Assembly: GCA_963783375.1 (NCBI GenBank)
Contig: CAWANH010000028.1
Span: 1,976,327 to 2,040,326, forward strand
DNA: 64,000 nucleotides
Source: Candidatus Eiseniibacteriota bacterium
GTDB taxonomy: Bacteria; Eisenbacteria; RBG-16-71-46; JABDJR01
Direction: 5' to 3'
The notes beneath the pieces are model-generated. The model was given only the letters and a program-made list of their open reading frames with translations, did no database searches and was not told where the DNA came from. The position numbers were made by a program, and so were the translations under genes. Below are positions 24,527 through 39,186 of the stretch, piece after piece; the stretch's first letter is position 1; each line of letters begins with the position of its first letter.

Positions 24527-27500
24527 TCAGCTCTTGATCCGCAGGTTCTCGTAGCGGACGTTGGGGGTGGCGAAGGAAAGGGTGAGGCCCTGGATCTCCG
24601 GCCGGGCGAACCGGGAGACGGTCAGATGGAAGAGCGGCACCAGGAGCGCCTCCCGGGCCACGTGCTCCTCGATCTCGCGGTAGCGGGCGTGCCGGGCGGC
24701 GGGGTCGATCTCCACCTGCGCCCGCTCGATCAGCTTGTCCAGTTCGGGTGAACCGCAGTACTTGGCCGCCCAGCCCTCCCGGGAATCCAGGATCCCCCCC
24801 ACCAGGGCGTGGGGGTCGGGATAGTCGGCCACCCACGCGCCCAGGGTGATGTCCGAACCTCCACTGCTCTGGATACGGTTGAAGTCGTCCCGATCACCGA
24901 TCCCGTCGAAAGTAAGCCGGAAGCCGGCCGACCGGAGATCGGCGACCAACCGCTCGATGACCGAGCGGCGGGTTTCCCTCCAGCTCGGGATGACGCACCC
25001 GGTGAGCGCGACCTCCGCCTGGGTCCGGTCGGTGTCCGCGACCGCCCCCGCCGCGGAGGCGGCCAGCCCCGGGCTGTGCCCCAGGAGACCGGGGGGGATC
25101 ATCCCGGTGGCCAGGACCGGGGCGGCGCCGGTCATCTGGGCCACGATGGTGGCCCGGTTGACCGCGTCCACCAGGCGGCGGCGGAGCGCCGGATCCCGCA
25201 GGGGCCCCCGGTGGGTGTTGAGGGCAAGGATGGCGGTGGAGATCCCGGGAATCTCGCGGTAGCCTCCGGCGAACTCGCTGCTCCGGCGGAGGTCCTCGGT
25301 CATCTCGGGCAGGAGGTTGTAGGCCAGGCTGAAGCGGCCCTTGCGGAACCCGGCGTAGAGATCCTCGGCGGAAGGGGTGCTTTCGAACACCAGCTCCTCG
25401 CTTCGCGGATAGCCTTCCCGCCAGTAGCCGGGATTCCGCTCCAGATGGCACCGCTCCCCGGGAACGAACTGCGTGAGCCGGAACGGACCGGTGCCCACGC
25501 ACCCGTCCCGGTGGCGCCGGGCGGCGAAATCGATCCCCTCGGGCACCACCGAGAAGGCGGTGTGGGAGAGCACGGCGGGGAAGTAGGGCACCGCACTCTC
25601 CAGGTGAATGGAGAACTCGCCGGCGGAGTGGATCTGGAACCCCTCCAGCTCCCCGGTCTCGCCGCGGATCAGCGCCGCCGCCCCGCGGACCGGAGACAGC
25701 GCCCAGCGGAACTCGCAGGCCTCGGTGGAGAGCGCCCGCTCCAGGCTGAACCGCACGTCCCGCACGGTGATCCGCCGGCCGTCGTGGAAACGGATGCCGT
25801 CCCGGAGCCGGATCCGATAGCGCTTCCCCCCGTCCTCCACGTCGATCCGGGAGGCCAGCCAGGGAATGATGCGGGCCCCCTCGTCGAGCCGGGTGAGGGT
25901 CTCGAACAGGGTCGACTGGACCTCGGCCTCGTCCACGTGGCTGGAGAGGAGCGGATCGAGGCTCCGGGTCACGGTCCCCATGATCGGGATCCGGATCGTC
26001 CCCTTTCCCACGGTGGCCGGCCCGCCCCCCGCGGTTTCCTCCTCCGCCTTCCCGAGCTTCCGGTAGTTGACGTAGGGGGGGCTGGTCTTGAGCTTCAGGC
26101 CCCGAACCTTGGGTCCGGGGATCCGGTAGTTGGTCTCGTGGAAGAGGGGAAGGAGCGCGCCCTCCTCCTCCAGCAGCCCTTCGAAGCGCCGGTAGAGGGC
26201 GACCCGCGACTCCGGACGGACCTCGGTCCGGGCCTGGTTCAGGAGGTCGTCGCACCGGGGGGAGGAGAAGAGCTTCCGGTACCGGCCGGTCTCGGAGTTG
26301 AAGAGCAGGTAGGTGAGGGCGTCGGGGTCGTCGTAGTCGCTGATGTAGCCCAGGGCCACGAAATCGATGCCGGTCGGATCGACGAGCTTCTCGTCGTAGG
26401 TCTCCTGGGTGGGCGTGACCACCTCGACCTCGACCCCCGCCCCGGCCCACGCGGCGAAGATGGCCCGGAGGAGGACGCCGTGGCGGTCCACCGTGGCCGG
26501 GGAGAGGGCGGCGGTGAGCTTGATCGGTCCGGCGAGCCCGGTCGCGGCGACCCGCCCGGCGGCCTCCTCCGCCCCGATCACCCGCCGCCGGCGTCCGGGA
26601 TCGTGGCCCAGGAGACCGGGGGGGATGAGCCCGGTGGCCGGCTCGGCCAGACGCCCCTTGGCGTTCCAGACCAGGTCGCGGACGCGGACCGACCCCAGGA
26701 GCGCGCGCCGGAGATCGGCGTTCCCGGCCAGCGGGCCGGAGACCACGTTCATCAGCAGGAAGAAGGTGCTCTTTCCGGGGACCTCTTCCAGGCGGCCCCG
26801 GAAGAGGGGCTCGCGCAGGATCCGCTCGAAGTCCTCGGGGGGAAGGCTTCGGCCCAGGTCGAACTCGCCGCTACGCAATCCCGCCGCGATGGCCGAGGCG
26901 GTGAGCCCGGGCCGGAACTCCAGGGTCTCCAGCCGGGGGGGGCCGTTCCAGTAGTCCTCGTTCCGGGCCAGGACGATCCGGTCGGCCATCTGGGACTCGA
27001 TCCGGAACGGTCCGGTGCCGACGGTGTGCTCTCCCGCCTCCCCCCCTTTCCGGAGGGCCACCCCGGTGCTGGAGTCGGTGAGGAGGGCGGGGTAGATGGG
27101 GAGCGGTTCGGAAAGATGGATCTCCAGACGCTGGGGGGCGGCGGCGACCAGGCCGGAAACCTCGGGCGCGTCCCCGTCCAGGAACTCCCGCACCCCGCGC
27201 AGGATGGAGAAGGCCGACCGGGTATCGTTCTTGCCCAGGCGGATCGTCTCCTCGATGGAGCGTTTGACCCGCTCCGAGGTGAGGGGAGTCCCGTCGTGGA
27301 ATCGAACCCCGTCCCGGAGGGTGAAGGTGAACGACCGGCCGCCCTCGGCCATGGTCCAATCCCGGCAGAGATGGGGGTGGAGCCGGCCTTCGGCGTCGGT
27401 GGTGAGCAGGGTCTCGAACACGTTGGCCGCGATCTCGGCCTGGGCGTCGTAGATGACCAGCCCGGGATCGAAGGTGGAGATCGGGCTCACCAGAGGCACG

Positions 27501-30190
27501 GTGAGCCGGCCGCCGGCCGGGATCTCCTCGACGGGTTTGCGGGCCTCGCTCCCCGGGCGGAGCCGCTCCATCTCCTGGAGGTACTCGTTGGCCTTGGCGT
27601 AGTCGGCGCGGAGGTTGGCCAGGGTGGCGGCCAGGGAGAGGAACTCGGCCAGACGCGCGGTGTCGCCGAGAGCCCGGGCCGCGGTCATGCCGCGCTCCAC
27701 CCACACCGTGGTGTCCTCGGCCCGGCGAGCCTGCCAGGCCATCTCCGCGGCCTGAAGGATCGACTCCACCGCGCGCTCGCTCTTTCCGGTGCGCTCGAAG
27801 ACGGCCGCCGCGGCCTCGGTTTCCCGGAGCCCCTCGGCCACGTCCCCCCGCATCTGGTGGGCCCGGGCCAGGAGCATGCGCGCCTCCGCCTCCAGAGACC
27901 GGTCCCCCTCCCACTCCTCGTCCAGGAACTCGAGGGCGGTGCCGGCGGCGCGCTGGGTCTCCTCGGGGCTGAAGGCCTCCAGGGAACGGCGGGCGTGGAG
28001 CAGACCGTACTCCACCGTCTTCTCCGGCTCGTCCCCTTCGGCGAAGTGATAGACGAGCTGGGGATAGACCCGCTCCAGGCGCCCGGTGTGCTTCTCCTCC
28101 AGGAGCTGGGCGTACTTCCGGTGGAGGGAGCGGCGTTTCCGCCGGGAGAGCTTGGCGTAGAGCACCTCGCGCACCACGCCGCTGGTGAAGGCCATGACGT
28201 CGCCCCGGGAGCGGCGGTCCTCCTCGATCAACCCTTCCCGGACCAGCCGGTCGATCACGTCGTCCAGGTCGTCGTCGGCGCCGAGAATCGCCTCCAGGTC
28301 GTCCACGTCGAAGGACTTCCCGATCAGGGCGGCGATGGAGAGCACCTGGATCATCTCCTCGGGGAGACCGGTGATCCGTTTCTCCACCGCCTGCTGGATG
28401 GTTTCGGGCAACTCGTCCGAGGCCACGTCCCCCCGGCCCGAGAGCCTCCACGCGCCGGTGGCGTCCTGGACGATGCTCTCGGCGTCGAGCAGGGAGCGCA
28501 CCAGCTCCTTGACGAAGAACGGGTTCCCCTCGCTCCCCTCGTAGAGCTGGTCGGCGAGACGGGGATCGATCTCGTTTCCCCCCAGGAGGGTGGAGAGGAG
28601 CTTCCGGTGCTCGGAGGCGGCCAGCGAGCCCAGGGTGACCGACGCGAACCGCGGGTCTCCCTGGAACGCCTCCAGCATGCGGTTGAGCGGGGTCTTCCGG
28701 GACATCTCCTCCTGGCGGTAGGTGCCCAGGATCAGGGTGGGGGTGGGGCCGAGGCGGCGGACGATGTACTGGAGGGCCTCGACGGAGATTTCCGCCCCGT
28801 GCAGATCCTCCAGGATCAGCACCAGGGGCTTTCCCCCGGCCAGCCGGATCAGGGTCCGGGCCAGAAGCTCGAAGATCTGGTTCTTGTTGTCGAGAGCCCC
28901 CGCGGGCTCCACGGGGCCGGAGCCGCTCACCGACCCCGACGAGCGGACGTCCTCGATCTCGCTCAGCATGGGGAAGAGCGAGATCAGATCCGCGCGCACG
29001 TCGGAGAGATCGACCGTCGCGGAGGAGCTCCCGGTTCCCCGCTGGCGAAAAAAGTCCTGAATCAGCTCACAAAATCCGTGGTATGGAAACGCGCCGTCCT
29101 GTTCCATGAACCGGCCGTGAAGGACGGGGATCTGCTGGGCGCGGGCCAGGTTCTCGATCTCGTCCAGGAGCCGGGTCTTTCCGATGCCCGCCGCCCCCGA
29201 CACCACCGCGAAGTGGCACTCGCCGGTCTTGGCCGCGTTCAGGCGGGTCTGAAGCTCGCGGAGCTCCTTTTCCCGCCCCACGAACGGAGCCAGGGCCGGC
29301 CGGGCGGCGTGGGTGACCTGGGTGACCATGACCGAGAGCAGGCGATCGCTCTCCCGGTGCTGGTCCCGGTAGCGGCGGAGGACCTGGGCCAGGTCCCCCG
29401 CCCGCTGGGGCCGGTCCTCGGGGGCCTTGGCCAGGCAGGCCAGAACCACCGCGTCGAGGTCCTCGTCCAGATCCGGCACCAGGGCGCGGGGGGACTGGGG
29501 GATCTCGTGCACGATGCGGTAAAGGATCGACTGCAGCTCTCCGGAGAACGGGAGGTCTCCGGTGAGGCATTCGAAGAGCACGGTGCCGAGGGAGTAGAGG
29601 TCGGAGCGGCCGTCGACGGTCCGGCCCATGACCTGCTCCGGGCTCATGTAGCCCATGGTCCCCACCAGGACCCCGCTCTTGGTCATCCGGGACATGTTGT
29701 CGTCGCGGGCCAGCCCGAAGTCCATGAGGCGGAAGCGCACGCCGCCCCCCGGCTCGGGGGAGACCATGAGGTTTTCCGGCTTGATGTCCCGGTGATAGAC
29801 CCCGTGGCCGTGGCTGTACTCCAGGGCCTCGGCGGTCTGGATCACCCCGTCGAGGATGTCCTTCAGGGTGAGGGTCTGGGATTTCAGGTGATAGCGAAGG
29901 CTCCGGCCGGTCAGGACCGGCATCACGAAGAAGAGCGATCCCTCGTGCTCGCCGATGTCGTGGATGGGGACGATCGAGGGGTGGTCGAGCCGGGCCACGG
30001 TCTGGGCCTCGACCCGGAACCGCTGCTCCGCCTCGGCCTGGACCAGACCGGGGGAGGTGAGCTTGATGGCCACCTCGCGGTCCAGGAGGGGATCGCGGGC
30101 CTTGTAGACCACGCCCATTCCGCCCCGTCCCAGCTCGGATATCACTTCATAGCGGCCGGCCAGCTTGGTTCCGATCATGGTTTGGATCAC
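24527..30190 (-). CDS. Ser/Thr kinase - STAND/AAA ATPase - TPR-like - two tandem family-5 (DppA/OppA-like) solute-binding domains
   Basis: Kinase motifs GRGGMG, HRDIKPEN, DFG, YMSPE. Walker A GAAGIGKT, Walker B LILEDLH, EGNPFF. Two copies of FETL.../LRDG.RFHDG/GTGPFR/RN..YW. Alternative ATG 30178. Confidence 0.88.
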   Translation of the reverse strand: MIQTMIGTKLAGRYEVISELGRGGMGVVYKARDPLLDREVAIKLTSPGLVQAEAEQRFRVEAQTVARLDHPSIVPIHDIGEHEGSLFFVMPVLTGRSLRYHLKSQTLTLKDILDGVIQTAEALEYSHGHGVYHRDIKPENLMVSPEPGGGVRFRLMDFGLARDDNMSRMTKSGVLVGTMGYMSPEQVMGRTVDGRSDLYSLGTVLFECLTGDLPFSGELQSILYRIVHEIPQSPRALVPDLDEDLDAVVLACLAKAPEDRPQRAGDLAQVLRRYRDQHRESDRLLSVMVTQVTHAARPALAPFVGREKELRELQTRLNAAKTGECHFAVVSGAAGIGKTRLLDEIENLARAQQIPVLHGRFMEQDGAFPYHGFCELIQDFFRQRGTGSSSATVDLSDVRADLISLFPMLSEIEDVRSSGSVSGSGPVEPAGALDNKNQIFELLARTLIRLAGGKPLVLILEDLHGAEISVEALQYIVRRLGPTPTLILGTYRQEEMSRKTPLNRMLEAFQGDPRFASVTLGSLAASEHRKLLSTLLGGNEIDPRLADQLYEGSEGNPFFVKELVRSLLDAESIVQDATGAWRLSGRGDVASDELPETIQQAVEKRITGLPEEMIQVLSIAALIGKSFDVDDLEAILGADDDLDDVIDRLVREGLIEEDRRSRGDVMAFTSGVVREVLYAKLSRRKRRSLHRKYAQLLEEKHTGRLERVYPQLVYHFAEGDEPEKTVEYGLLHARRSLEAFSPEETQRAAGTALEFLDEEWEGDRSLEAEARMLLARAHQMRGDVAEGLRETEAAAAVFERTGKSERAVESILQAAEMAWQARRAEDTTVWVERGMTAARALGDTARLAEFLSLAATLANLRADYAKANEYLQEMERLRPGSEARKPVEEIPAGGRLTVPLVSPISTFDPGLVIYDAQAEIAANVFETLLTTDAEGRLHPHLCRDWTMAEGGRSFTFTLRDGVRFHDGTPLTSERVKRSIEETIRLGKNDTRSAFSILRGVREFLDGDAPEVSGLVAAAPQRLEIHLSEPLPIYPALLTDSSTGVALRKGGEAGEHTVGTGPFRIESQMADRIVLARNEDYWNGPPRLETLEFRPGLTASAIAAGLRSGEFDLGRSLPPEDFERILREPLFRGRLEEVPGKSTFFLLMNVVSGPLAGNADLRRALLGSVRVRDLVWNAKGRLAEPATGLIPPGLLGHDPGRRRRVIGAEEAAGRVAATGLAGPIKLTAALSPATVDRHGVLLRAIFAAWAGAGVEVEVVTPTQETYDEKLVDPTGIDFVALGYISDYDDPDALTYLLFNSETGRYRKLFSSPRCDDLLNQARTEVRPESRVALYRRFEGLLEEEGALLPLFHETNYRIPGPKVRGLKLKTSPPYVNYRKLGKAEEETAGGGPATVGKGTIRIPIMGTVTRSLDPLLSSHVDEAEVQSTLFETLTRLDEGARIIPWLASRIDVEDGGKRYRIRLRDGIRFHDGRRITVRDVRFSLERALSTEACEFRWALSPVRGAAALIRGETGELEGFQIHSAGEFSIHLESAVPYFPAVLSHTAFSVVPEGIDFAARRHRDGCVGTGPFRLTQFVPGERCHLERNPGYWREGYPRSEELVFESTPSAEDLYAGFRKGRFSLAYNLLPEMTEDLRRSSEFAGGYREIPGISTAILALNTHRGPLRDPALRRRLVDAVNRATIVAQMTGAAPVLATGMIPPGLLGHSPGLAASAAGAVADTDRTQAEVALTGCVIPSWRETRRSVIERLVADLRSAGFRLTFDGIGDRDDFNRIQSSGGSDITLGAWVADYPDPHALVGGILDSREGWAAKYCGSPELDKLIERAQVEIDPAARHARYREIEEHVAREALLVPLFHLTVSRFARPEIQGLTLSFATPNVRYENLRIKS

Positions 30191-30394
30191 CGTTCAGGAG
30201 AGGTTCGGGGAGCGGGTGTCACCGGCGAGCGGGGACGCGAGGCTCGACCGCGCCGTCGGCCCCTTGGGCAACTCCGGGTGGAATCGGATGATAAGTCTAT
30301 CTCATGCCAAACCCGCTCACCAGATGATAAGATAAGTCGCCTTACCGCAAGCTCATCCTGGGTTTTGCTCCACCACCGCCCGCCGGGAGACCTC

Positions 30395-33300
30395 ATGATC
30401 GGCACCAAGCTCGGACCGTACAAGATCACCGAAACCATCGGCGAGGGGGGGATGGCCACGGTTTACCGGGCCTACCAGGCCAGCATGGACCGACACGTGG
30501 CGGTGAAGGTGATCCGGGCCAACATCCTTCACGACCCTTCGCTTCGCGAGCGGTTCCAGCGCGAGGCGCGCCTGATCGCCCGGCTCGAGCATCCCCACCT
30601 GCTACCGGTCTACGACTTCGACGGGGATCACGACCCGCCCTTCATCGTCATGCGGTTCCTGGAGGGGGGCACCTTGAAGCAGATCCTCGATCGGGAGGAA
30701 CTGCCCCGGACCGAGGTCCTCTACATGCTCCGGCAGGTGGCCACCGCCCTGGACTACGCGCACCGCCAGGGAGTGGTGCACCGGGATCTCAAACCCTCCA
30801 ACATCATGATCGACCGCGAGGGGAACGCCTTCGTCACCGACTTCGGGATCGCCCGCGCCGCCGACGGCGGGGAGGACCTGACCGGCACCGGCATCCTGAT
30901 CGGGACCCCGGCCTACATGGCCCCGGAACAGGCCCAGGGGAAGCCGAACGTGGATTCGCGCGCCGACCTCTACGCCCTGGGGGCCATCGTCTACGAGATG
31001 CTGACCGGAAAGCCCCCCTTCGATCACGAGAACAGCATGGGCATCCTGATGGCCCACATCAGCCAGCCCGTGCCCTCGGTGGGCGCGCTCGACCCGTCGC
31101 TTCCCCCGGCGGTGGACGAGGTCGTGGCCAGGGCGATGGCCAAGGACCCGGCCGATCGCTTTCCCACCGCCGACGCCCTGGTCGAGGGCCTGGCCGCCGC
31201 CTTGAGCCTCACCGCCGCGGACGCGCCCCGGCACCTCCAATCGGTGACCGAGATGATCTCGGTGGACCAGCTCGCCGCGTTCCGGGCCCAGATGGACGGC
31301 GGGAAGCAGCCGACCCCGACCGGGAGCACGCCGTCCGAGCAGCAGCGTCAGATGACCTCGGTGTACATGGACGTGACCGAGCTGGCGGAGATCCAGTACG
31401 AATCGGGCGCGGACACCGAAACCGTGCGCGGGCACATGGACCGGCTCTGGGAACGGTTCGCGGGGATCGCCGAGGAGCGGGGCGGGGTGATCCAGAGCCG
31501 CACCGACGAGGTCGGGGTGGCCCTCTGGGGCCGCGACCGGGCCAGCGAGGACGACGCCGAGCGGGCGATCCGGGCCGCGCTCCGCATGCGCGAGGCGGTC
31601 CAGAAGGAAGCCCGGCGCGTCTTCGGCGCCGCCTGGGAGCCCACCGAGGAGAGCCCGCTCCCCTACGCCGCCGGCATCACCACCGGCCCGGTGCTCCTGG
31701 AGCGCGAGGCGGAGACCGGCATCTATTCGGCCCGGGGCGCCTCGATCACCCTGGCCGGACGGTTGCGCGAGGCCGCCCCGGCGGGGAAGGTGCTGGTGGA
31801 CTACGACACCTTCACCCAGGTGCGCGGGATCTTCACCTTCCAGTCCCACGACCCCATCCGGGTGCGCGGGCGGAAGGAGCCCCTGGAGGCGTTCATCGCG
31901 GTCCAGGCCAAGCCCCGGGCCTTCCGCCTCCAGGCCCGGGGGATCGAGGGCGTCGAGACGAGGATGATCGGCCGGGAGATCGAGCTCCGGATCCTCCAGG
32001 AAGCGCTCACCCTGACCCTGGAGGACGGCGAGACCCAGGTGGTGACGGTGGTGGGGGAGGCGGGGATCGGAAAGTCGCGTCTCCTCTACGAGTTCACCAA
32101 CTGGATCGACCTCCTGGACGAGACCCTGTGGCTCTTCCGGGCCCGGGCCACCCAGCCCTCCATGCTCCAGCCCTACTCCCTCACCCGCGACCTCTTCTCC
32201 TTCCGCTTCCAGATCCTGGACTCCGATCCCCTGGAGAGCGTGCACCAGAAGTTCCTCGCCGGGGTGGAAGTCTTCCTGGGCGAGGGAAGCGGGGACAAGG
32301 CCGCCTTCCTGGGGCAGCTGGTGGGGTTCGACTTCTCCGAGTACCCCGCGGTGGCCGCCGCGCTGGAGAACCCCGAGCAGTTCCGGGACACGGCGCTGGG
32401 GTACCTGGGCGAGTTCTTCACCGCGGCTTCGGAATCCAACCCGGTGGTGCTCCAGATCGAGGACATCCACTGGGCCGACGACCGGTCGCTGGACCTCATC
32501 AACCAGCTGGTCCGGGACAACACCCGGCTCCCGCTCTTCGTGATCTGCATGGCCCGGCCCAGTCTCTACGAGCGGCGCCCCCAGTGGGGGGAGGGCCAGC
32601 GCTTCCACGAGCGGGTCCAGCTCGAACCCCTCTCCCAGCTCTCCAGCCGCCGCCTGGTCAAGGAACTCCTGAAGAAGCTTCCCACCGTGCCGGCCGAGTT
32701 GCGGGACCTGGTGGTGGAGCGGGCGGACGGGAACCCGTTCTACATCGAGGAGCTGATCAAGTCCCTCATCGACGACCGGGTGATCCTGAAGGGCGACGAG
32801 GAGTGGTCGGTGGATACCTCGCGCCTGGCCGGGCTCCGGGTGCCTCCCACCCTGACCGGGGTGCTCCAGTCACGGCTCGACACCCTGCCCCCCGTCCTCC
32901 ACCAGCTCCTGCAGCGGGCCTCGGTGGTGGGCCGGATCTTCTGGGACCGCGCGGTGGTGTATTTGAGCCGGGACATGAACCTGAAGGACGACGAGATCGA
33001 GACCATGCTGGAGGAGCTTCGCGAGCGGGAGATGATCCTCCGCCGCGAGCAGTCCTCCTTCGCGGATACGGTGGAGTACGTCTTCCGCCACGCCATCCTC
33101 CGGGACGTGACCTACGAGACCCTGGTTCCCCGCCAGCGCCGCGCCCTCCACGCCCAGACCGCGGAGTGGTTGGTGGAGGCGGGGGGCGAGCGGGCCTCGG
33201 AGTACACGCTCCGGGTGGCCGAACACTACGGCCACGCCGGGGAGCCGGCCAAGGCCGCCGGCCATCTCCAGGATGCGGCCCGGACCGCCGCCGGCCTGGG

Positions 33301-34360
33301 GGCCTACGACGAGGCGATCGCCGTGCTCCGAAAGGCCCTGGAGCTTCTCCAGGGGGAGGAGCATCGTGTGGCCGCGTTCCCGGTGGAGGTCCAGCTCGGG
33401 AGCCTCCTGTCCCAGCGGGGGGGGTTCGCCGAGGGCCGGGAACGGCTCTCCCGGGCCCTGGAGGGGGCGCGGAAGATGGGGGACCGGCCGCTCCAGGCCA
33501 CCGCGCTCGGGGAGCTGGCCCGGCTGTCGCTCTGGACCGACGATCTGGACGCGGCCAAGACCTACCTGAACGAGGCGCTTCCCCTGGTGCGGGAGCTGGA
33601 CGACCGCCCCGCCCTGATGTTCGTCCTCCGGCAGATGGGCAATCTCAACGTCAACGAGCCCGACCGGGCCGAGAGCTACTTCTCCGAAAGCGTCTCGCTG
33701 GCCCGGGAGCTGGGCGATCGCGGCGCCGAGGCCGCGGCGCTGAACGGGCTCGCCATCACCCACGACCTCCGGAACGACTTCGAAGAGAGCATGGAGCGTT
33801 ACCGGGAATCCCTCGAGATCTTCCGGGACCTGGGACAGCCCAAGTGGATGGCCATGGTGGGATCGAACATCGGCGGGGAGTTCACCCGTCGGGGGAAGTT
33901 CGACGAGGCCCGCGAGGCCCTCGATGCGGCGTTCCGGGCGGCCCGTGAATCCCGTGACGATCCCATGACCACCACCGTTCTCCTGGAGCAGGGGCGCCTG
34001 GCGCTGAGGGAAGGTCGGGACGAGGAAGCGGCGGCGCTCCTGGGGAAGTCGCTGGACCTGGCCCTCAAGCTTGGGACCCGGCCGGTGCCGCTTCTCATCT
34101 CCTGCGCCGTGATCCGGGCCCGCGCCGGCCGCCGGGACGAGGCCCTGGCCTGGGTCGGCCTGGCCCGGGCCCAGACCGGCGTCTGGCAGAAGCTCGAGAT
34201 CGACCGGGACATCGCCGAGTGCCTACCCCTGGTTCGCGGCGACCTTGCCGACGAGGCGGTCGAGGCGGCCATGAAGGCGGGCGAGTCGCTGGATCTGGGC
34301 GAGGTGCTGGAGGGGATCCGGCGGGAAGGCATCCTGCCCGGGGGTTCTCAGGGCGCGTAG
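30395..34360 (+). CDS. Ser/Thr kinase - degenerate class III cyclase-like - STAND/AAA ATPase - TPR protein
   Basis: GGGAG RBS and ATG 30395 inside ORF 24809..34360. HRDLKPSN, DFG, YMAPE; EDDAERAIRAAL; GEAGIGKSRL, IEDIHWAD, DGNPFY; C-terminal TPR-like helices. Confidence 0.88.
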   Translation: MIGTKLGPYKITETIGEGGMATVYRAYQASMDRHVAVKVIRANILHDPSLRERFQREARLIARLEHPHLLPVYDFDGDHDPPFIVMRFLEGGTLKQILDREELPRTEVLYMLRQVATALDYAHRQGVVHRDLKPSNIMIDREGNAFVTDFGIARAADGGEDLTGTGILIGTPAYMAPEQAQGKPNVDSRADLYALGAIVYEMLTGKPPFDHENSMGILMAHISQPVPSVGALDPSLPPAVDEVVARAMAKDPADRFPTADALVEGLAAALSLTAADAPRHLQSVTEMISVDQLAAFRAQMDGGKQPTPTGSTPSEQQRQMTSVYMDVTELAEIQYESGADTETVRGHMDRLWERFAGIAEERGGVIQSRTDEVGVALWGRDRASEDDAERAIRAALRMREAVQKEARRVFGAAWEPTEESPLPYAAGITTGPVLLEREAETGIYSARGASITLAGRLREAAPAGKVLVDYDTFTQVRGIFTFQSHDPIRVRGRKEPLEAFIAVQAKPRAFRLQARGIEGVETRMIGREIELRILQEALTLTLEDGETQVVTVVGEAGIGKSRLLYEFTNWIDLLDETLWLFRARATQPSMLQPYSLTRDLFSFRFQILDSDPLESVHQKFLAGVEVFLGEGSGDKAAFLGQLVGFDFSEYPAVAAALENPEQFRDTALGYLGEFFTAASESNPVVLQIEDIHWADDRSLDLINQLVRDNTRLPLFVICMARPSLYERRPQWGEGQRFHERVQLEPLSQLSSRRLVKELLKKLPTVPAELRDLVVERADGNPFYIEELIKSLIDDRVILKGDEEWSVDTSRLAGLRVPPTLTGVLQSRLDTLPPVLHQLLQRASVVGRIFWDRAVVYLSRDMNLKDDEIETMLEELREREMILRREQSSFADTVEYVFRHAILRDVTYETLVPRQRRALHAQTAEWLVEAGGERASEYTLRVAEHYGHAGEPAKAAGHLQDAARTAAGLGAYDEAIAVLRKALELLQGEEHRVAAFPVEVQLGSLLSQRGGFAEGRERLSRALEGARKMGDRPLQATALGELARLSLWTDDLDAAKTYLNEALPLVRELDDRPALMFVLRQMGNLNVNEPDRAESYFSESVSLARELGDRGAEAAALNGLAITHDLRNDFEESMERYRESLEIFRDLGQPKWMAMVGSNIGGEFTRRGKFDEAREALDAAFRAARESRDDPMTTTVLLEQGRLALREGRDEEAAALLGKSLDLALKLGTRPVPLLISCAVIRARAGRRDEALAWVGLARAQTGVWQKLEIDRDIAECLPLVRGDLADEAVEAAMKAGESLDLGEVLEGIRREGILPGGSQGA

Positions 34361-34914
34361 AGCGCCTTGATCCTCCCCCAGGTCACGGGCTCGACCGCGG
34401 TCTGCGGCCGGTCCCGCTCGAAGAGCTCCAGGAGATCGAACCGGCAGGTGCCGTTTCCGATCCGGCGAACGGTGACGGTGTAGGTTCCCGAAACCAGGCA
34501 GCGCACCTCGGACGACTGGACCCAGTCGTATAGAGCCGAGCTTCACCCGACGCCCATCCCGGGAATCGTGGTCACCGTGTCCTCGCACGCGGTCAGCGCG
34601 GGGGGGTCGGGCGCGAACTCGATCGAAAAAGTCCGCCTTTCGCCCACCGCTCCGGCGCTCCGGATCGAGTCCACGAAGCAGAAGCTGTGGGAGAGATCCA
34701 GCCGGAAGCGGACCCACTCCCCCTCCCGGTCGAGCCCGTCCACCGCCAGCCGCTGGGACGCGGCGGAGCAGTTGGTGACGTGGATGCCCGCTCCCCCCCG
34801 GTCGGAATAGTCGATCATGCTCTCCGCCTCGATCCGAACGGTCTCGGACCGGGCGGAGGAGGCGAAAAGCGGCGACAGGAGGGCGATGGTCGCCCCGATC
34901 AGGAACCACCTCAT
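34348..34914 (-). CDS. Candidate secreted selenoprotein (188 aa, Sec124), CBM6/CBM35-like jelly roll, C-terminal TWGxxKxxY motif
   Basis: GGAGG RBS, ATG 34914 and signal peptide. In-frame TGA at 34545-34543 is followed by 64 further sense codons (SSALYDWVQSSEVRCLVSGTYTVTVRRIGNGTCRFDLLELFERDRPQTAVEPVTWGRIKALYAP) to TGA 34350-34348. SECIS-like hairpin directly 3' of the UGA. Confidence 0.75.
34507..34540 (-). promoter_or_regulatory. Putative bacterial SECIS element
   Basis: mRNA UGA-AG-CUCGG-cucuau-ACGACUG-GGUC-CAGUCGU-CCGAG. Perfect 7-bp upper stem, 5-bp lower stem, GGUC loop 20 nt after the UGA. Confidence 0.7.
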
Positions 34915-35227
34915 GAGGTCGGCCTCCGGATGCGCGTGCGCTGGCCTGGTTGGGGGCAAGGAAAGAGCGTGGTCCCAGTCTACCGGATGAGGCGCGCCGA
35001 ATCAGGGAGAATCCCCATGCGCCGCGAGCCGGCCGGTTCCTCCCCGGCCCGCCGGCGAATTGATTCATCTCCATTCTGGGGCTTCCGCTCGCTTTCCGGA
35101 TCGGGTATGAGATTGAAGGGACTCCGGCCCCGCCCGCGCCCCCGCCAGAAGGGGCAACCCGGGCCCGGGCCCGGCCGCGCCCCGCCGGCTCCCGAAGGCG
35201 ATTCCAAACCGAGAGGACGATGGCGCC

Positions 35228-37348
35228 ATGGAACGACGTTTCGGACTGTTCCTTGCCGTATCAATGCTCTTCACCAACGCCGTTGCCGCCGGCCCCGCCC
35301 GGGCCGACGAGGGGATGTGGCTCCTGAATCGTCTGCCCGTCGCGCGCATCCAGGCGGAGTACGGGTTCACCCCCACCCCGGCCTGGGTCGAGCATCTCCA
35401 GCAGGCGGCGGTGAAGTTCGGACGCGGGGGATCGGCGAGCTTCATCTCCTCCGACGGGCTCCTTCTTACCAACCATCACGTGGCCCGGAGCCAGCTGGCC
35501 AAGCTGAGCACCCCGGAGCGCGACCTCCTGGTGGACGGCTACCTGGCGCGCACCCCCGAGCAGGAACTCCAGTGTCCGGACGTGGCAGTGATGTCGCTCC
35601 AGGACATCGTGGACGTGACCGGCCGGGTGGAAGGCGCCGCGGCGGGGGCGGCCGATGCCGTCTCGGCAGAAAGCGCGCGGAACGCGGAGATCGCGGCCAT
35701 CGAGCGGGAGTCCTTCGCCGAAACCGGCCTCACCTCCGAAGTGGTGACCCTGTACGGGGGAGGCCGCTATCACCTCTACCGGTACAAGCGGTTCACCGAC
35801 GTCCGGATCGTGTTCGCCCCCGGGGGACAGGCCGCCGATTTCGGGGGGGACGAGGACAACTTCGAGTTTCCCCGCTACTGCCTCGACGTCGCCTTGCTCC
35901 GGGTCTACGACCACGGGAAGCCGTACCACCCCGAGCAGTACCTGAAGATGGCGCCGGGCGGCATCGCCGACGGCGACCCGGTCTTCGTGATCGGCCACCC
36001 GGGGCGCACCCAGCGCCTGGACACCGTGGCCGACCTCGCGTTCCTCCGCGACGTGCAGTATCCGCGGCAGATGCGCACCGCCCGGACCCGCGAGGTCGAG
36101 CTTTCGATCTACTCCAACCGGGGAGAACGGGAGGCGCGCCTGGCCGAGCGCGAGCTCCTCGGGGTCCAGAACTGGCGCAAGGGGACCGGGGCCAAGCTTC
36201 GCGCCCTGGAGGATCCACGGGTCTTCGCCCAGGTCGTGAAGCGGGAGAAGGCCTTCCGGGACGCGGTGGCCAGGGACCCGAAGCTCCAGCGCGAGGTCGG
36301 CGACGCCTGGGACCGGATCGCCGCCGCCCGCGAGGTCAACACCGGGATCTACGACCGTTACCAGCTCGTGGAGGGGGGACGCCGCTCCTCTCTGGGAGGA
36401 TCGGTACTCTTCCGCATCGCCCGCACCCTGGTGCGCATGGCCGACGAGCGGGGCAGGCCCGACGGCGAGCGCCTGAGGGAATACCGGGAGTCGAATCTCC
36501 CCAACCTGGAGATGGCCCTCTACTCGCGTGCGCCCGTCGTGAACGAGCTGGAGATCGGGCGGGTGGAGAGCCACCTGGCCCTGGCCGCCGAGATCCTGGG
36601 CGGCGACGATCCCGCGGTCCGAACCATGCTCGGCGGCGAGTCCCCGGCGGATCGGGCCCGGGAGCTGGTGGGGGGGAGCCGCCTGGGCGACCCGGCGGTC
36701 CGCCGGGCCCTGGCCGACGGGGGGCGGGCGGCGATCGAGGCCTCGAAGGACCCCATGCTCCGGCTGGCCCTGGCCCTGGACGGGCCCGCCCGCGAGGTTC
36801 GGGCGCGCTACGAGAACGAAGTGGAGGCGGTCCTGCACGACGCCTACGCCCGGCTCGCCCGGGCCCGCTTCGCGGTGTACGGGGAGGACGTCTACCCCGA
36901 CGCCACCGGGACCCTGCGGCTCTCCGCCGGCCGGATCCAAGGCTTCGACCTGGAAGGCGCGCCGGTAGCGCCCTTCACCGATTTCGCGGGTCTCTACGCC
37001 CGGAGCGCCGCCCGCGGTCCGCTGGCCCCCTTCGATCTCCCGGAGAGCTGGACGACAGCGCGGAGCCGCCTCGACCTCGCCACGCCGTTCAACTTCACCT
37101 CCACCAACGACATCATCGGCGGCAACTCCGGGAGCCCGGTGGTGAACCGGGACGGGGAGTGGGTGGGGGTGATCTTCGACGGCAACCGCTACTCGTTCGT
37201 ATGGGATGTCCTCTATCCGGAGAATGGCGAAGGCCGGGCGGTCTCGGTGGACGCCCGGGGGCTGGTTGAAGCGCTTCGGACGGTTTACGGCGCGGACGCG
37301 CTGGCCGCCGAGGTCTCGACGGGCGAACCGCGGGTCCGGGGGGAGTAG
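35228..37348 (+). CDS. S46-family dipeptidyl peptidase (DPP7/DPP11-like)
   Basis: Signal peptide then ADEGMWL; LTNHH; YPDATGTLRLS; DIIGGNSGSPV catalytic Ser motif; FDGN. Confidence 0.92.
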   Translation: MERRFGLFLAVSMLFTNAVAAGPARADEGMWLLNRLPVARIQAEYGFTPTPAWVEHLQQAAVKFGRGGSASFISSDGLLLTNHHVARSQLAKLSTPERDLLVDGYLARTPEQELQCPDVAVMSLQDIVDVTGRVEGAAAGAADAVSAESARNAEIAAIERESFAETGLTSEVVTLYGGGRYHLYRYKRFTDVRIVFAPGGQAADFGGDEDNFEFPRYCLDVALLRVYDHGKPYHPEQYLKMAPGGIADGDPVFVIGHPGRTQRLDTVADLAFLRDVQYPRQMRTARTREVELSIYSNRGEREARLAERELLGVQNWRKGTGAKLRALEDPRVFAQVVKREKAFRDAVARDPKLQREVGDAWDRIAAAREVNTGIYDRYQLVEGGRRSSLGGSVLFRIARTLVRMADERGRPDGERLREYRESNLPNLEMALYSRAPVVNELEIGRVESHLALAAEILGGDDPAVRTMLGGESPADRARELVGGSRLGDPAVRRALADGGRAAIEASKDPMLRLALALDGPAREVRARYENEVEAVLHDAYARLARARFAVYGEDVYPDATGTLRLSAGRIQGFDLEGAPVAPFTDFAGLYARSAARGPLAPFDLPESWTTARSRLDLATPFNFTSTNDIIGGNSGSPVVNRDGEWVGVIFDGNRYSFVWDVLYPENGEGRAVSVDARGLVEALRTVYGADALAAEVSTGEPRVRGE

Positions 37349-37452: not shown

Positions 37453-38016
37453 CTAGTAGCGGGACTTGAGGAGCCCCCAGGTGGTGGGCTGGGTGGGCAC
37501 CGCTTCCGTCACGTCGGACTGGACGCGAAGCTCCAGGTTGGCCGGGAGTTCGATGCCGGCGCCGGTCGCCGGATCGAAGAAGTACCCGAGGACGAGCTGC
37601 AAGGTGCCGTCCTCCACGAGAACCGGTAGCCCCGGCGCGGGGTACGAGAGCAGACCGCCGTCGCTATCGGAGGTGAAGTCGAAGACGGCGTTGGCCAGGC
37701 CGCTCGCATCCACCGAGAACTGGACGGTGAGCTTGTCGCTGATCGCTCCGGCGTTGGGATCGCTGGCCGGCTCCACCATGTAGAGCACGCCGGTTCCCTG
37801 GTAGCCGGGAGGGCTCAGGGTGATCCAGCAGGCCTCGACGTGGGCGGTCTCACCGGAAGCGGACGTGCCGATCCCGCACTCGAAATTGTTGTCGTAGGAT
37901 ACGGCGGTCGAATCCGCGGTCTCGACAAAAGCGAGGTAGGCGGCCGAGGCGGTGATCGGGGCCAGGGCCAGGATCAGGAAGGGTAGGACGACCAGGAACG
38001 CGTAGCGCTTGGTCAT
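37453..38016 (-). CDS. Secreted hypothetical protein with C-terminal TWGxxKxxY motif
   Basis: AAGGAG RBS, signal peptide (ASA-A), ends AVPTQPTTWGLLKSRY. Confidence 0.8.
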   Translation of the reverse strand: MTKRYAFLVVLPFLILALAPITASAAYLAFVETADSTAVSYDNNFECGIGTSASGETAHVEACWITLSPPGYQGTGVLYMVEPASDPNAGAISDKLTVQFSVDASGLANAVFDFTSDSDGGLLSYPAPGLPVLVEDGTLQLVLGYFFDPATGAGIELPANLELRVQSDVTEAVPTQPTTWGLLKSRY

Positions 38017-38400: not shown

Positions 38401-39186
38401 CTACGCGGTCTCGGACTCGTCGCTCGTTCCACGCTTCCGCCGCTTGAGGGCCATACCGGCCAGGCCGGCGCCCAGGAGGAGCAGGGTGGTGGGCTCGGGC
38501 ACGGTGGTCTCGAAGTGGATCTTCTGCTGAATCGCGCGATCGAACTCGCCGAAGCTGGAGGCGGTGACCAGGAACGCCCCCGACCCGCCGAGCACGTTGT
38601 TCTGGTAGTAGGTGGCCACGCTGGAGCTGCCTCCCACCACCAGGCCGTTGATCATGTCCACGCCGGCGTTCAGAGCGTTGTCCCGGCCCACGTGGGGGGT
38701 GAGGGCACCGGGGCTATCGTTGTCCACGCCGTCCCCGGATACGTCCATGATCAGCTTGCTCCCCTCGAACCCGTTCTGGGCGAAGAGGGGGGTGCCCCAG
38801 TTCAGGGCGCTCTGGACCGCGGTGTTGTTGCTGAACGGCCGGGCGGCGTTCCCGATCGCGGTGGCGAACGCGTTGGCCGAGGCGGCGTCGGTGAGATGGG
38901 TCCACCCCACGCTCAGGGACTGCTGGTTCGAGCTGGACCAGTAGCCCAGGGCAACGGCGATCCCGCCGGGGCTGTTGATGATGTCCTGCTGGACCGTGGC
39001 GTCCTGGAACGCGGCCACGTAGCCCGACCGCTGGAGGGCGAACTCTCCGGAGTCGATGCTGCCGGAAACGTCCACCAGGAGGAGCAATTCGGTCTGAACG
39101 GGCGTGGCCAAGGCGGCCATGGGGGCCAGGAGGATTCCCAGCGCCGCGGCGGTGATGCCGAGAATAACGGTAGTCTTGAATCTCAT
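38401..39186 (-). CDS. DUF1194 (vWA-like) PEP-CTERM sorting-domain protein
   Basis: Signal peptide; LLLLVDVSGSI MIDAS-like motif; DVSGDG; C-terminal VPEPTTLLLLGAGLAGMALKRRKR. Confidence 0.88.
   Translation of the reverse strand: MRFKTTVILGITAAALGILLAPMAALATPVQTELLLLVDVSGSIDSGEFALQRSGYVAAFQDATVQQDIINSPGGIAVALGYWSSSNQQSLSVGWTHLTDAASANAFATAIGNAARPFSNNTAVQSALNWGTPLFAQNGFEGSKLIMDVSGDGVDNDSPGALTPHVGRDNALNAGVDMINGLVVGGSSSVATYYQNNVLGGSGAFLVTASSFGEFDRAIQQKIHFETTVPEPTTLLLLGAGLAGMALKRRKRGTSDESETA

Follow-up and report, generated by a model that had tools for sequence, protein, structure and literature searches.

The locus raises the question of how a UGA codon in the middle of a small bacterial reading frame is read, and what kind of protein results if translation continues through it. 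The preliminary description of this DNA proposed that the UGA is recoded and that the hairpin directly behind it is a selenocysteine insertion (SECIS) element resembling that of Escherichia coli fdhF. Analysis of the window, meaning the whole stretch of 64,000 nucleotides, together with homologues from the same phylum, leads to a reading held at a probability of roughly 0.9, in which a SECIS element recodes the UGA at 34545-34543 as selenocysteine (Sec) within a probably exported protein of predicted CBM6/35-like fold that would carry a surface redox site. The features of the gene and its hairpin are as follows.

34348..34914, minus strand: whole gene with read-through, 188 codons, true stop TGA at 34350-34348
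34923..34927, minus strand: GGAGG ribosome-binding site, 8 nt 5′ of the ATG at 34914
34543..34545, minus strand: in-frame TGA (codon 124), the predicted selenocysteine site; of 26 homologues, 23 have TGA here when aligned and 2 have Cys
34512..34529, minus strand: predicted SECIS upper stem-loop, ACGACUG-GGUC-CAGUCGU, with the loop (34522-34519) starting 20 nt past the UGA; codes for Y-D-W-V-Q-S
34507..34540, minus strand: lower 5-bp stem, CUCGG (34540-34536) with CCGAG (34511-34507); folds here, register not conserved

Between the internal TGA (codon 124) and the terminal TGA (34350-34348) lie 64 codons, and the database version of the gene product is a truncated protein of 123 amino acids. 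A word-indexed protein search returned only three close relatives, all of them truncated as well. The TGA at 34545-34543 is not an assembly error, because the contig of an independent sequencing run (X3), which covers 34330-34691 with six differences, has none listed inside 34507-34545. At its 3′ end the gene is overlapped for 13 nt by a plus-strand gene ending at 34360; the stretch 24527-34360 holds two large back-to-back genes, with starts near 30190 (minus strand) and about 30240 (plus strand), and inspection of their translations gives both a Ser/Thr-kinase-like N-terminus. A peptidase S46 gene (35228-37348, plus strand) is divergent from the selenoprotein gene, and a DUF1194 protein with a PEP-CTERM tail is encoded nearby (38401-39186, minus strand).

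Read along the minus strand, the order is TGA (34545-34543), AG, CTCGG (34540-34536), CTCTAT, ACGACTG (34529-34523), GGTC (34522-34519), CAGTCGT (34518-34512), and CCGAG (34511-34507), which are the exact letters given in the preliminary description, although the strand was left unstated there. RNAfold of this 39-mer (34507-34545, minus strand) recovers the structure as drawn, a perfect 7-bp stem closed by a GGUC loop 20 nt after the UGA, at −14.8 kcal/mol with 92% of the ensemble and a z score of −2.36. When wider flanks are folded the 7-bp upper stem persists while the lower part re-pairs, and z varies with the folded length (−1.81 at 46 nt, −2.20 at 61, −1.05 at 66, and +0.39 at 101), so that significance is lost. 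A plus-strand reading of the hairpin was rejected, as it folds but the UGA context is absent, and so was a consensus terminator, of which a promoter and terminator scan found none. Rfam, whose models may not cover this type of element, gave three chance-level matches over 34000-35300 (E 5-6), none of them a SECIS. In the genome as a whole, 86 of 96,492 TGA triplets precede a Watson-Crick stem of at least 7 bp with a G[GT] loop at 16-24 nt (306 when at least 6 bp are asked for), and when the peptide downstream is recoded synonymously 20,000 times, 17% of the versions also give a stem of at least 7 bp. Because so many similar stems exist, the hairpin in this one sequence is barely beyond chance, and is suggestive but no proof.

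The family of homologues is more informative. Profile searching across 206 genomes from the phylum gave 36 matches in 30 genomes, of which ten (E 3.6e-6 to 9.3e-4) were dropped because only the tail or C-terminal part aligned, leaving 26 distinct domains in 21 genomes. The aligned codon is TGA in 23 of these, spread over 19 genomes, TGC in two, and in one the site is lost. The 64 codons after the TGA are conserved in frame at overall identities of 25-94%, so that 23 of the 26 combine the TGA with conservation on both sides of it. A search of 1.84 billion representative proteins returned 447 with E ≤ 0.001, and among the best 150 of these 447, which were classified, 116 terminate at the Sec site (in 110 cases with G-x-G-x(x) as the end), 16 are full-length, three are C-terminal halves, ten are weak repeat proteins and five are other. 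Cys stands at the site in all 16 full-length proteins, as it does in the two genes from the genomes, and the 116 truncated ones probably end in TGA to judge from where they stop. On these counts Sec forms seem to outnumber Cys forms by about 7 to 1, and at 50% identity the family falls into no fewer than 116 clusters. A search with protein alignment A4, which excludes fragments and a half-gene and which was run there without a positive control, did not find the family in five further genomes (G058, G003, G006, G008, and G043). A search for related loci gave two loci.

The two Cys genes sit in different groups of Sec genes in the tree, which does not force separate origins of the Cys or U-x-C forms, and a single origin is possible. 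Tandem arrangements occur: in one genome (G063, locus L053) a Cys copy adjoins a Sec copy as tandem paralogues, in another (G039, L011) two Sec copies stand in tandem, and two metagenome contigs (L055 and L063) each carry three family genes in a row. One homologue (G001, L039 / L018) has lost the Sec-bearing half whole, its N-terminal part being joined straight to the tail.

The absence of the hairpin from UGA-containing homologues had been named beforehand as the observation that would speak against the element. The core GACTG-G[GT]YY-CAGTC is instead present in 22 of the 23 TGA copies, the exception (G010) having a TGA and a different hairpin, and it decays in Cys homologues; conservation of the hairpin across the family is far beyond chance. 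The loop follows the UGA at 20 nt in 16 copies and at 17 nt in six, and among the 22 it reads GGTC in 18, GGCT in two, GGTT in one, and GTCT in one. The family consensus stem is 6 bp. In RNA alignment A5, from which G002 was omitted as identical to this genome at that place and in which G010 is misaligned, pairing over 22 distinct sequences is 93.3% for the upper stem and 37.5% for the lower 5-bp stem; the lower stem of the preliminary description thus folds in this gene and is not a family feature. Five of the six core stem pairs are invariant. The outer C-G pair is G-C in three sequences from two genomes, where the Tyr codon TAC is replaced by TGG (Trp) and the Ser codon TCG by TCC. The covariation that had been proposed as a check was found in this one compensatory pair, and direct covariation amounts to that pair and probably to one event.

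Codon usage within the hairpin points the same way. Asp is GAC in 22 of 22 (62% elsewhere in the same genes), Ser is TCG or TCC in 22 of 22 (53%), Tyr is TAC in 19 of 19 (72%), and Gln is CAG in 22 of 22 (84%), figures that are inflated by the kinship among the genomes. The peptide [YW]DWxQS occurs in none of the 16 Cys forms, and of the two Cys genes examined at the DNA level, one has a broken stem and the other a shortened one. Because the codons are fixed, the peptide is absent from the Cys forms and the stem has decayed there, we infer that RNA rather than protein holds the six hairpin codons, and that the stem would have forced Y-D-W-V-Q-S on the Sec versions. A search pattern at the DNA level alone (TGA, 12 N, stem-loop) found 19 loci with 16 distinct matches in metagenomes, and all 16 belong to this family and are in its frame; the upstream half matches in 15, and the remaining one is truncated by its contig end. 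Since the pattern was derived from the family and some matches repeat known genome sequences, this is a test of specificity, not of independence. Viral contigs gave no matches to the pattern.

In the consensus for bacterial SECIS elements, the apical loop has 3-9 nt and the upper stem 4-16 bp, a G stands within the first two loop positions and is usually followed by G or U, the UGA-to-loop distance is 16-37 nt, and the minimum free energy is −7.5 kcal/mol or lower (PMC13188914). The hairpin agrees with this consensus on all four counts (4-nt loop and 7-bp stem, GGUC, 20 nt, −14.8 kcal/mol), and like consensus elements it lies inside the coding region right after the UGA, with a loop starting in GG at a 20-nt spacing. 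It differs in that its stem sequence is near-invariant across the family, so that the RNA would dictate a hexapeptide. What it has in common with the E. coli fdhF element (NC_000913.3) is the GGUC loop capping a short upper stem and a comparable spacing from the UGA, 18 nt in fdhF against 20 nt in this gene, whereas the fdhF stem of 6 bp has a bulged U and that of the family element is uninterrupted, the stem sequence and the protein are unrelated, and there is no conserved lower stem here. The term fdhF-like therefore holds for the loop and its distance but not for the bulge or the lower stem, and the element is best described as a bacterial SECIS that is not specifically of the fdhF type. 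The bulged U in the upper stem of E. coli fdhF has a role in SelB binding. By analogy, SelB with Sec-tRNA would bind the GGUC loop of the family element and decode the UGA, a step that follows established Sec biology and is strongly supported.

The machinery that such decoding would use is present, as this genome (G000) carries selA, selB, selD, and tRNA-Sec, and its selD bears an in-frame TGA of its own. The tRNA-Sec is the sole tRNA with a UCA anticodon. Among the 19 genomes with a TGA copy, 17 have a full selA, one has a fragment, and one (G150, 54% complete) has none. Because five of five related genomes without the family gene also have selA, its presence allows recoding but is no predictor of the gene. 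A clearly different element in known selenoprotein genes would also have told against the proposal; selD and the MsrA-, DsbA-, and Prx-like genes carry elements of the same kind, short stems with small G-led loops 17-31 nt past the UGA. Five TGAs in the genome are followed by a GGUC hairpin of at least 6 bp, and two of them close coding frames that continue, those of the gene under study and of a second gene listed below with the candidates from a crude coding-potential scan of the genome, which also included selD on contig C1.

G000:C29:1583046-1583402 (L074), minus strand: second gene with a candidate GGUC SECIS, zinc-ribbon (seleno)protein DG-like, 6-bp stem, 20 nt after the TGA
G000, C3:154520, minus strand: candidate from the scan
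G000, C29:23274, minus strand: candidate from the scan
G000, C28:1271171, minus strand: candidate from the scan
G000, C28:74499, plus strand: candidate from the scan
G000, C28:62285, plus strand: candidate from the scan
G000, C28:827464, minus strand: candidate from the scan
G000, C29:400970, plus strand: candidate from the scan
G000, C28:396756, minus strand: candidate from the scan

The DG-like gene matches the NCBIfam (seleno)protein DG model at E 7.5e-22, below the model cut-off and with a gene shorter than the model, and its TGA is kept in seven of seven strong matches. From their motifs we take the candidates other than selD to be MsrA-, DsbA-, and Prx-like, two Trx-like, two UshA-like, and one UxxC lipoprotein-like. 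The scan of this genome gave no formate dehydrogenase candidate. Small contigs C8, C11, C14, C24, and C25 duplicate stretches of large ones, and genome-wide counts hold a few duplicates for that reason. The suggestion that the hairpin could serve as a template for finding other selenoproteins fared unevenly, as its shape is unspecific and needs a coding-frame filter, while the exact stem finds this family alone.

Two readings compete with recoding as selenocysteine. One takes the UGA as a true stop and the hairpin as chance or as mRNA end structure behind a 123-residue protein, which would fit the database product, the fact that TGA is the commonest stop here (1079 of 1657 long training genes) and the similar stems after 86 other TGAs. 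Against it, the 64 codons after the TGA are conserved in frame, complete the fold, and carry a tail found genome-wide; Cys139, after the TGA, co-varies with Cys79, before it; and every one of the 16 uninterrupted homologues has Cys at the site. The other has an alternative code or leaky read-through insert Trp, Gly, or Cys at the UGA, or regards the codon as a sequencing error or pseudogene lesion. UGA is indeed reassigned in some bacterial lineages, but TGA is the main stop in this genome and ends this very gene, the only tRNA with the matching anticodon is tRNA-Sec, and the aligned residue is Cys and never Trp or Gly; an error or lesion is further opposed by the same TGA in 19 genomes and in the contig of the independent run. 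Both readings are very improbable. Recoding as selenocysteine is, by contrast, very likely on the comparative evidence, because UGA, hairpin, and frame are conserved jointly, the Cys versions lose the hairpin, and the genome has selA, selB, selD, and tRNA-Sec, and the earlier judgement that the UGA is recoded and no error is borne out by the independent contig and by the retention of TGA and hairpin throughout the family.

The 188-residue product of read-through would be exported via a signal peptide and sorted by its tail, and the features on which the discussion of its function turns are the following.

34849..34914, minus strand: likely signal peptide, residues 1 to about 22, from inspection and hydropathy only
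34417..34845, minus strand: beta-sandwich predicted to be CBM6/CBM35-like, residues 24 to about 166; the UGA precedes four of its strands
34768..34770, minus strand: Cys49, likely partner of Sec124; kept in 21 of 23, the two without it having U-x-C
34498..34680, minus strand: Cys79 (34680-34678) and Cys139 (34500-34498), a co-varying pair flanking the UGA
34357..34383, minus strand: C-terminal TWGRIKALY tail, reached only by read-through

Hydropathy in an 11-residue window reaches 2.3 at the N-terminus, and later 19-residue windows never rise above 0.82. The tail is of a TWGxIKxLY-like type that ends about 65 proteins of this genome (69 regular-expression matches, a few spurious or duplicated), and Pfam matched no family to it. 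Because a FlgD-Ig or T9SS-A-like domain stands in its place in some family members, the tail may be an interchangeable sorting signal. Export of the protein is likely. Another frame in the window (37453-38016, minus strand) bears such a tail, and on contig C28 near 720995 (minus strand) a tail-bearing gene appears to be broken by frameshifts, only its last 65 codons being in the frame of the tail.

AlphaFold2 with 23 sequences gives a model with a pLDDT of 87.5 in which four strands follow Sec, and the fold as modelled needs the strands after the UGA. The best Foldseek matches are to CBM6 and CBM35 (E about 2e-6, TM 0.73 by target), and VIA-align of the first model with 2cdo gives Z 13.5 and an rmsd of 2.7 over 128 aligned residues, with several CBM and Cry domain-III folds tied nearby, so that the predicted models have the CBM6/CBM35 beta-sandwich (jelly-roll). 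At the level of sequence, Pfam gave no family for this protein, with one of 23 members matching PF03422 at E 0.013, below the gathering score, and no CBM match among 11 Cys forms, and the best hit of a PDB sequence search has E 0.066 (8zvk). A profile alignment (probability 95.9) with a CBM6 repeat protein places Sec in the TGGW loop, with low confidence in that loop. In cleft A of CtGH11-CBM6, the sugar stacks against Trp92 and Tyr34 (PMC10284105). The family resembles CBM6, CBM35, and CBM36 domains (2cdo, 1gmm, 3wnk, 1ux7) in its predicted beta-sandwich, its E-x-E start and its modular fusions, and differs in that the cleft-A aromatics seem not to be kept, Sec or Cys would stand in the TGGW-equivalent loop, and the domain is usually stand-alone, with an export tail and no glycosidase. 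Presuming that the CBM6 residue numbers Tyr34, Trp92, and Asn120 are mapped correctly onto the motifs of the family protein, the first position corresponds to Gly60, invariant in all 23 members, and the second, in a loop aligned with low confidence, to a residue near 126 that varies; 22 of 23 have Arg or Lys near the third, where the loop aligns poorly. Sec124 would thus sit in the loop that holds the sugar-stacking Trp of CBM6, and a surface redox site is the preferred reading.

Cys79 and Cys139 are both present in 15 sequences, both absent in eight, and never found one without the other, a pattern across the UGA that is intelligible only with the two halves in a single chain; this pair is likely a structural disulfide. 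Cys49 is also found in 103 of the 116 truncated database proteins. Because the two genes without Cys49 carry U-x-C, a Cys partner for Sec would appear to be obligatory, and pairing of Cys49 with Sec124 as a selenenylsulfide is reasonably probable.

A possible electron source is a fusion gene joining an AhpC/TSA domain containing CxxC to a predicted beta-barrel (DUF6029/porin-like in the Atlas), which lies head-to-head with the family gene in nine of 21 genomes from five families (loci L025, L021, L024, L026, L027, L052, L053, L036, and L037, in genomes G022, G039, G015, G069, G085, G154, G063, G062, and G061). Of 20 site-bearing genomes, 15 have a close orthologue (E < 1e-90), versus 1 of 21 hand-picked others; searches of this genome (97% complete) and of G002 did not find the gene. 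In the weakest step of the scheme, this neighbouring thioredoxin-fold/beta-barrel fusion would reset the Cys49-Sec124 pair in most carriers. The full proposal, a large, uncatalogued family in which a CBM fold, exported with a tail specific to the lineage, has been rebuilt as an extracellular Cys-Sec redox site fed by an outer-membrane thioredoxin-barrel fusion, is accordingly put forward as a tentative idea against which the odds still stand.

Granted recoding, the protein may still be a lectin, in which a static Se-S bond made by Sec shapes the sugar cleft or acts as its gate. This would suit the best fold matches (CBM6, CBM35, and CBM36), the 16 Cys versions, the fusion of the domain in some members to Ig, FN3, and FlgD-type modules as in CBMs, and the retention of E-x-E and of a final-strand Asp, calcium ligands in CBM6, in 21-23 of 23. 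A common fold is no proof of function, however, the positions of the CBM6 sugar-stacking residues seem, on a tentative mapping, to be an invariant Gly and a variable residue, and a preponderance of Sec of about 7 to 1 over Cys would be needless for a plain structural bond. A soft-metal or metalloid site (Hg, Cu, As), formed by Sec124 with Cys49 (or by C-C-U or U-x-C) and exchanging ligands with the barrel, is suggested by the extra cysteines beside Sec (U-x-C in two genes, C-C before the site in three truncated proteins) and by the stretch rich in Cys (GCGC or GCGVC) that both copies of the barrel partner that were read contain. It is opposed by the Pfam domain of that partner, which is a thiol-redox domain, and by the lack of any recurrent metal-resistance or transport gene among the 34 neighbour or family-associated frames scanned. 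In the order that results, the surface redox site comes first, the metal site, which is unlikely, comes next, and the lectin with a static bond is a little less likely again. Redox turnover at Sec124, as opposed to a static bond or a metal site, is itself put at somewhat under an even chance.

The protein shares with catalogued selenoproteins the combination of UGA, SECIS, and Cys homologues, a Gly-rich run before Sec, and truncation in databases. The G-x-G-U it has in common with UXX-star family 2 (GxGU) and HgcB (GVGU) is a resemblance of motif only, and the exported selenoproteins already catalogued include the ABC substrate-binding SaoB/SaoX. Prokaryotic selenoproteins catalogued so far are for the most part redox proteins of the thioredoxin-like or metal-cofactor kind (PMC13188914), and none of the 119 families listed in Table 1 of that paper, through which together with NCBIfam the families of Haft and Tolstoy (2025) were covered, has a CBM or lectin fold by name or domain identifier. 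In NCBIfam (release June 2026), none of 23 members matches any model at E ≤ 0.5, no family was returned for nine members either, and 11 Cys forms matched no selenoprotein model, whereas the same library flagged the DG-like control. The BSepDB main text, as far as it was available, mentions neither Eisenbacteria, Krumholz-, nor carbohydrate; a literature search found no paper pairing Eisenbacteria with selenocysteine; and a search for selenoproteins with a carbohydrate-binding module returned only genome papers with single mentions, and the listings of further literature searches had nothing on this family. The comparisons point to a large selenoprotein family on a lectin-like fold that was not found in Pfam, NCBIfam, the 119-family catalogue, or the literature searched.

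The hairpin itself is an ordinary SECIS of a known class, and what it marks is less ordinary, a protein that is predicted to fold like a lectin and has a likely signal peptide and a tail of the export type. Over 100 diverse database entries are cut at the Sec site and labelled hypothetical or unnamed. The family is also a natural experiment on overlapping codes, in which the SECIS would fix six codons in the Sec forms and the peptide drifts once Sec has become Cys. Since this is a small protein of which one genome (G063) encodes a natural Sec form and a natural Cys form next to each other, the benefit of Sec outside the cytoplasm is directly testable. If the proposed reading is true, uncultured Eisenbacteria-type bacteria would possess a cell-surface selenium redox system.
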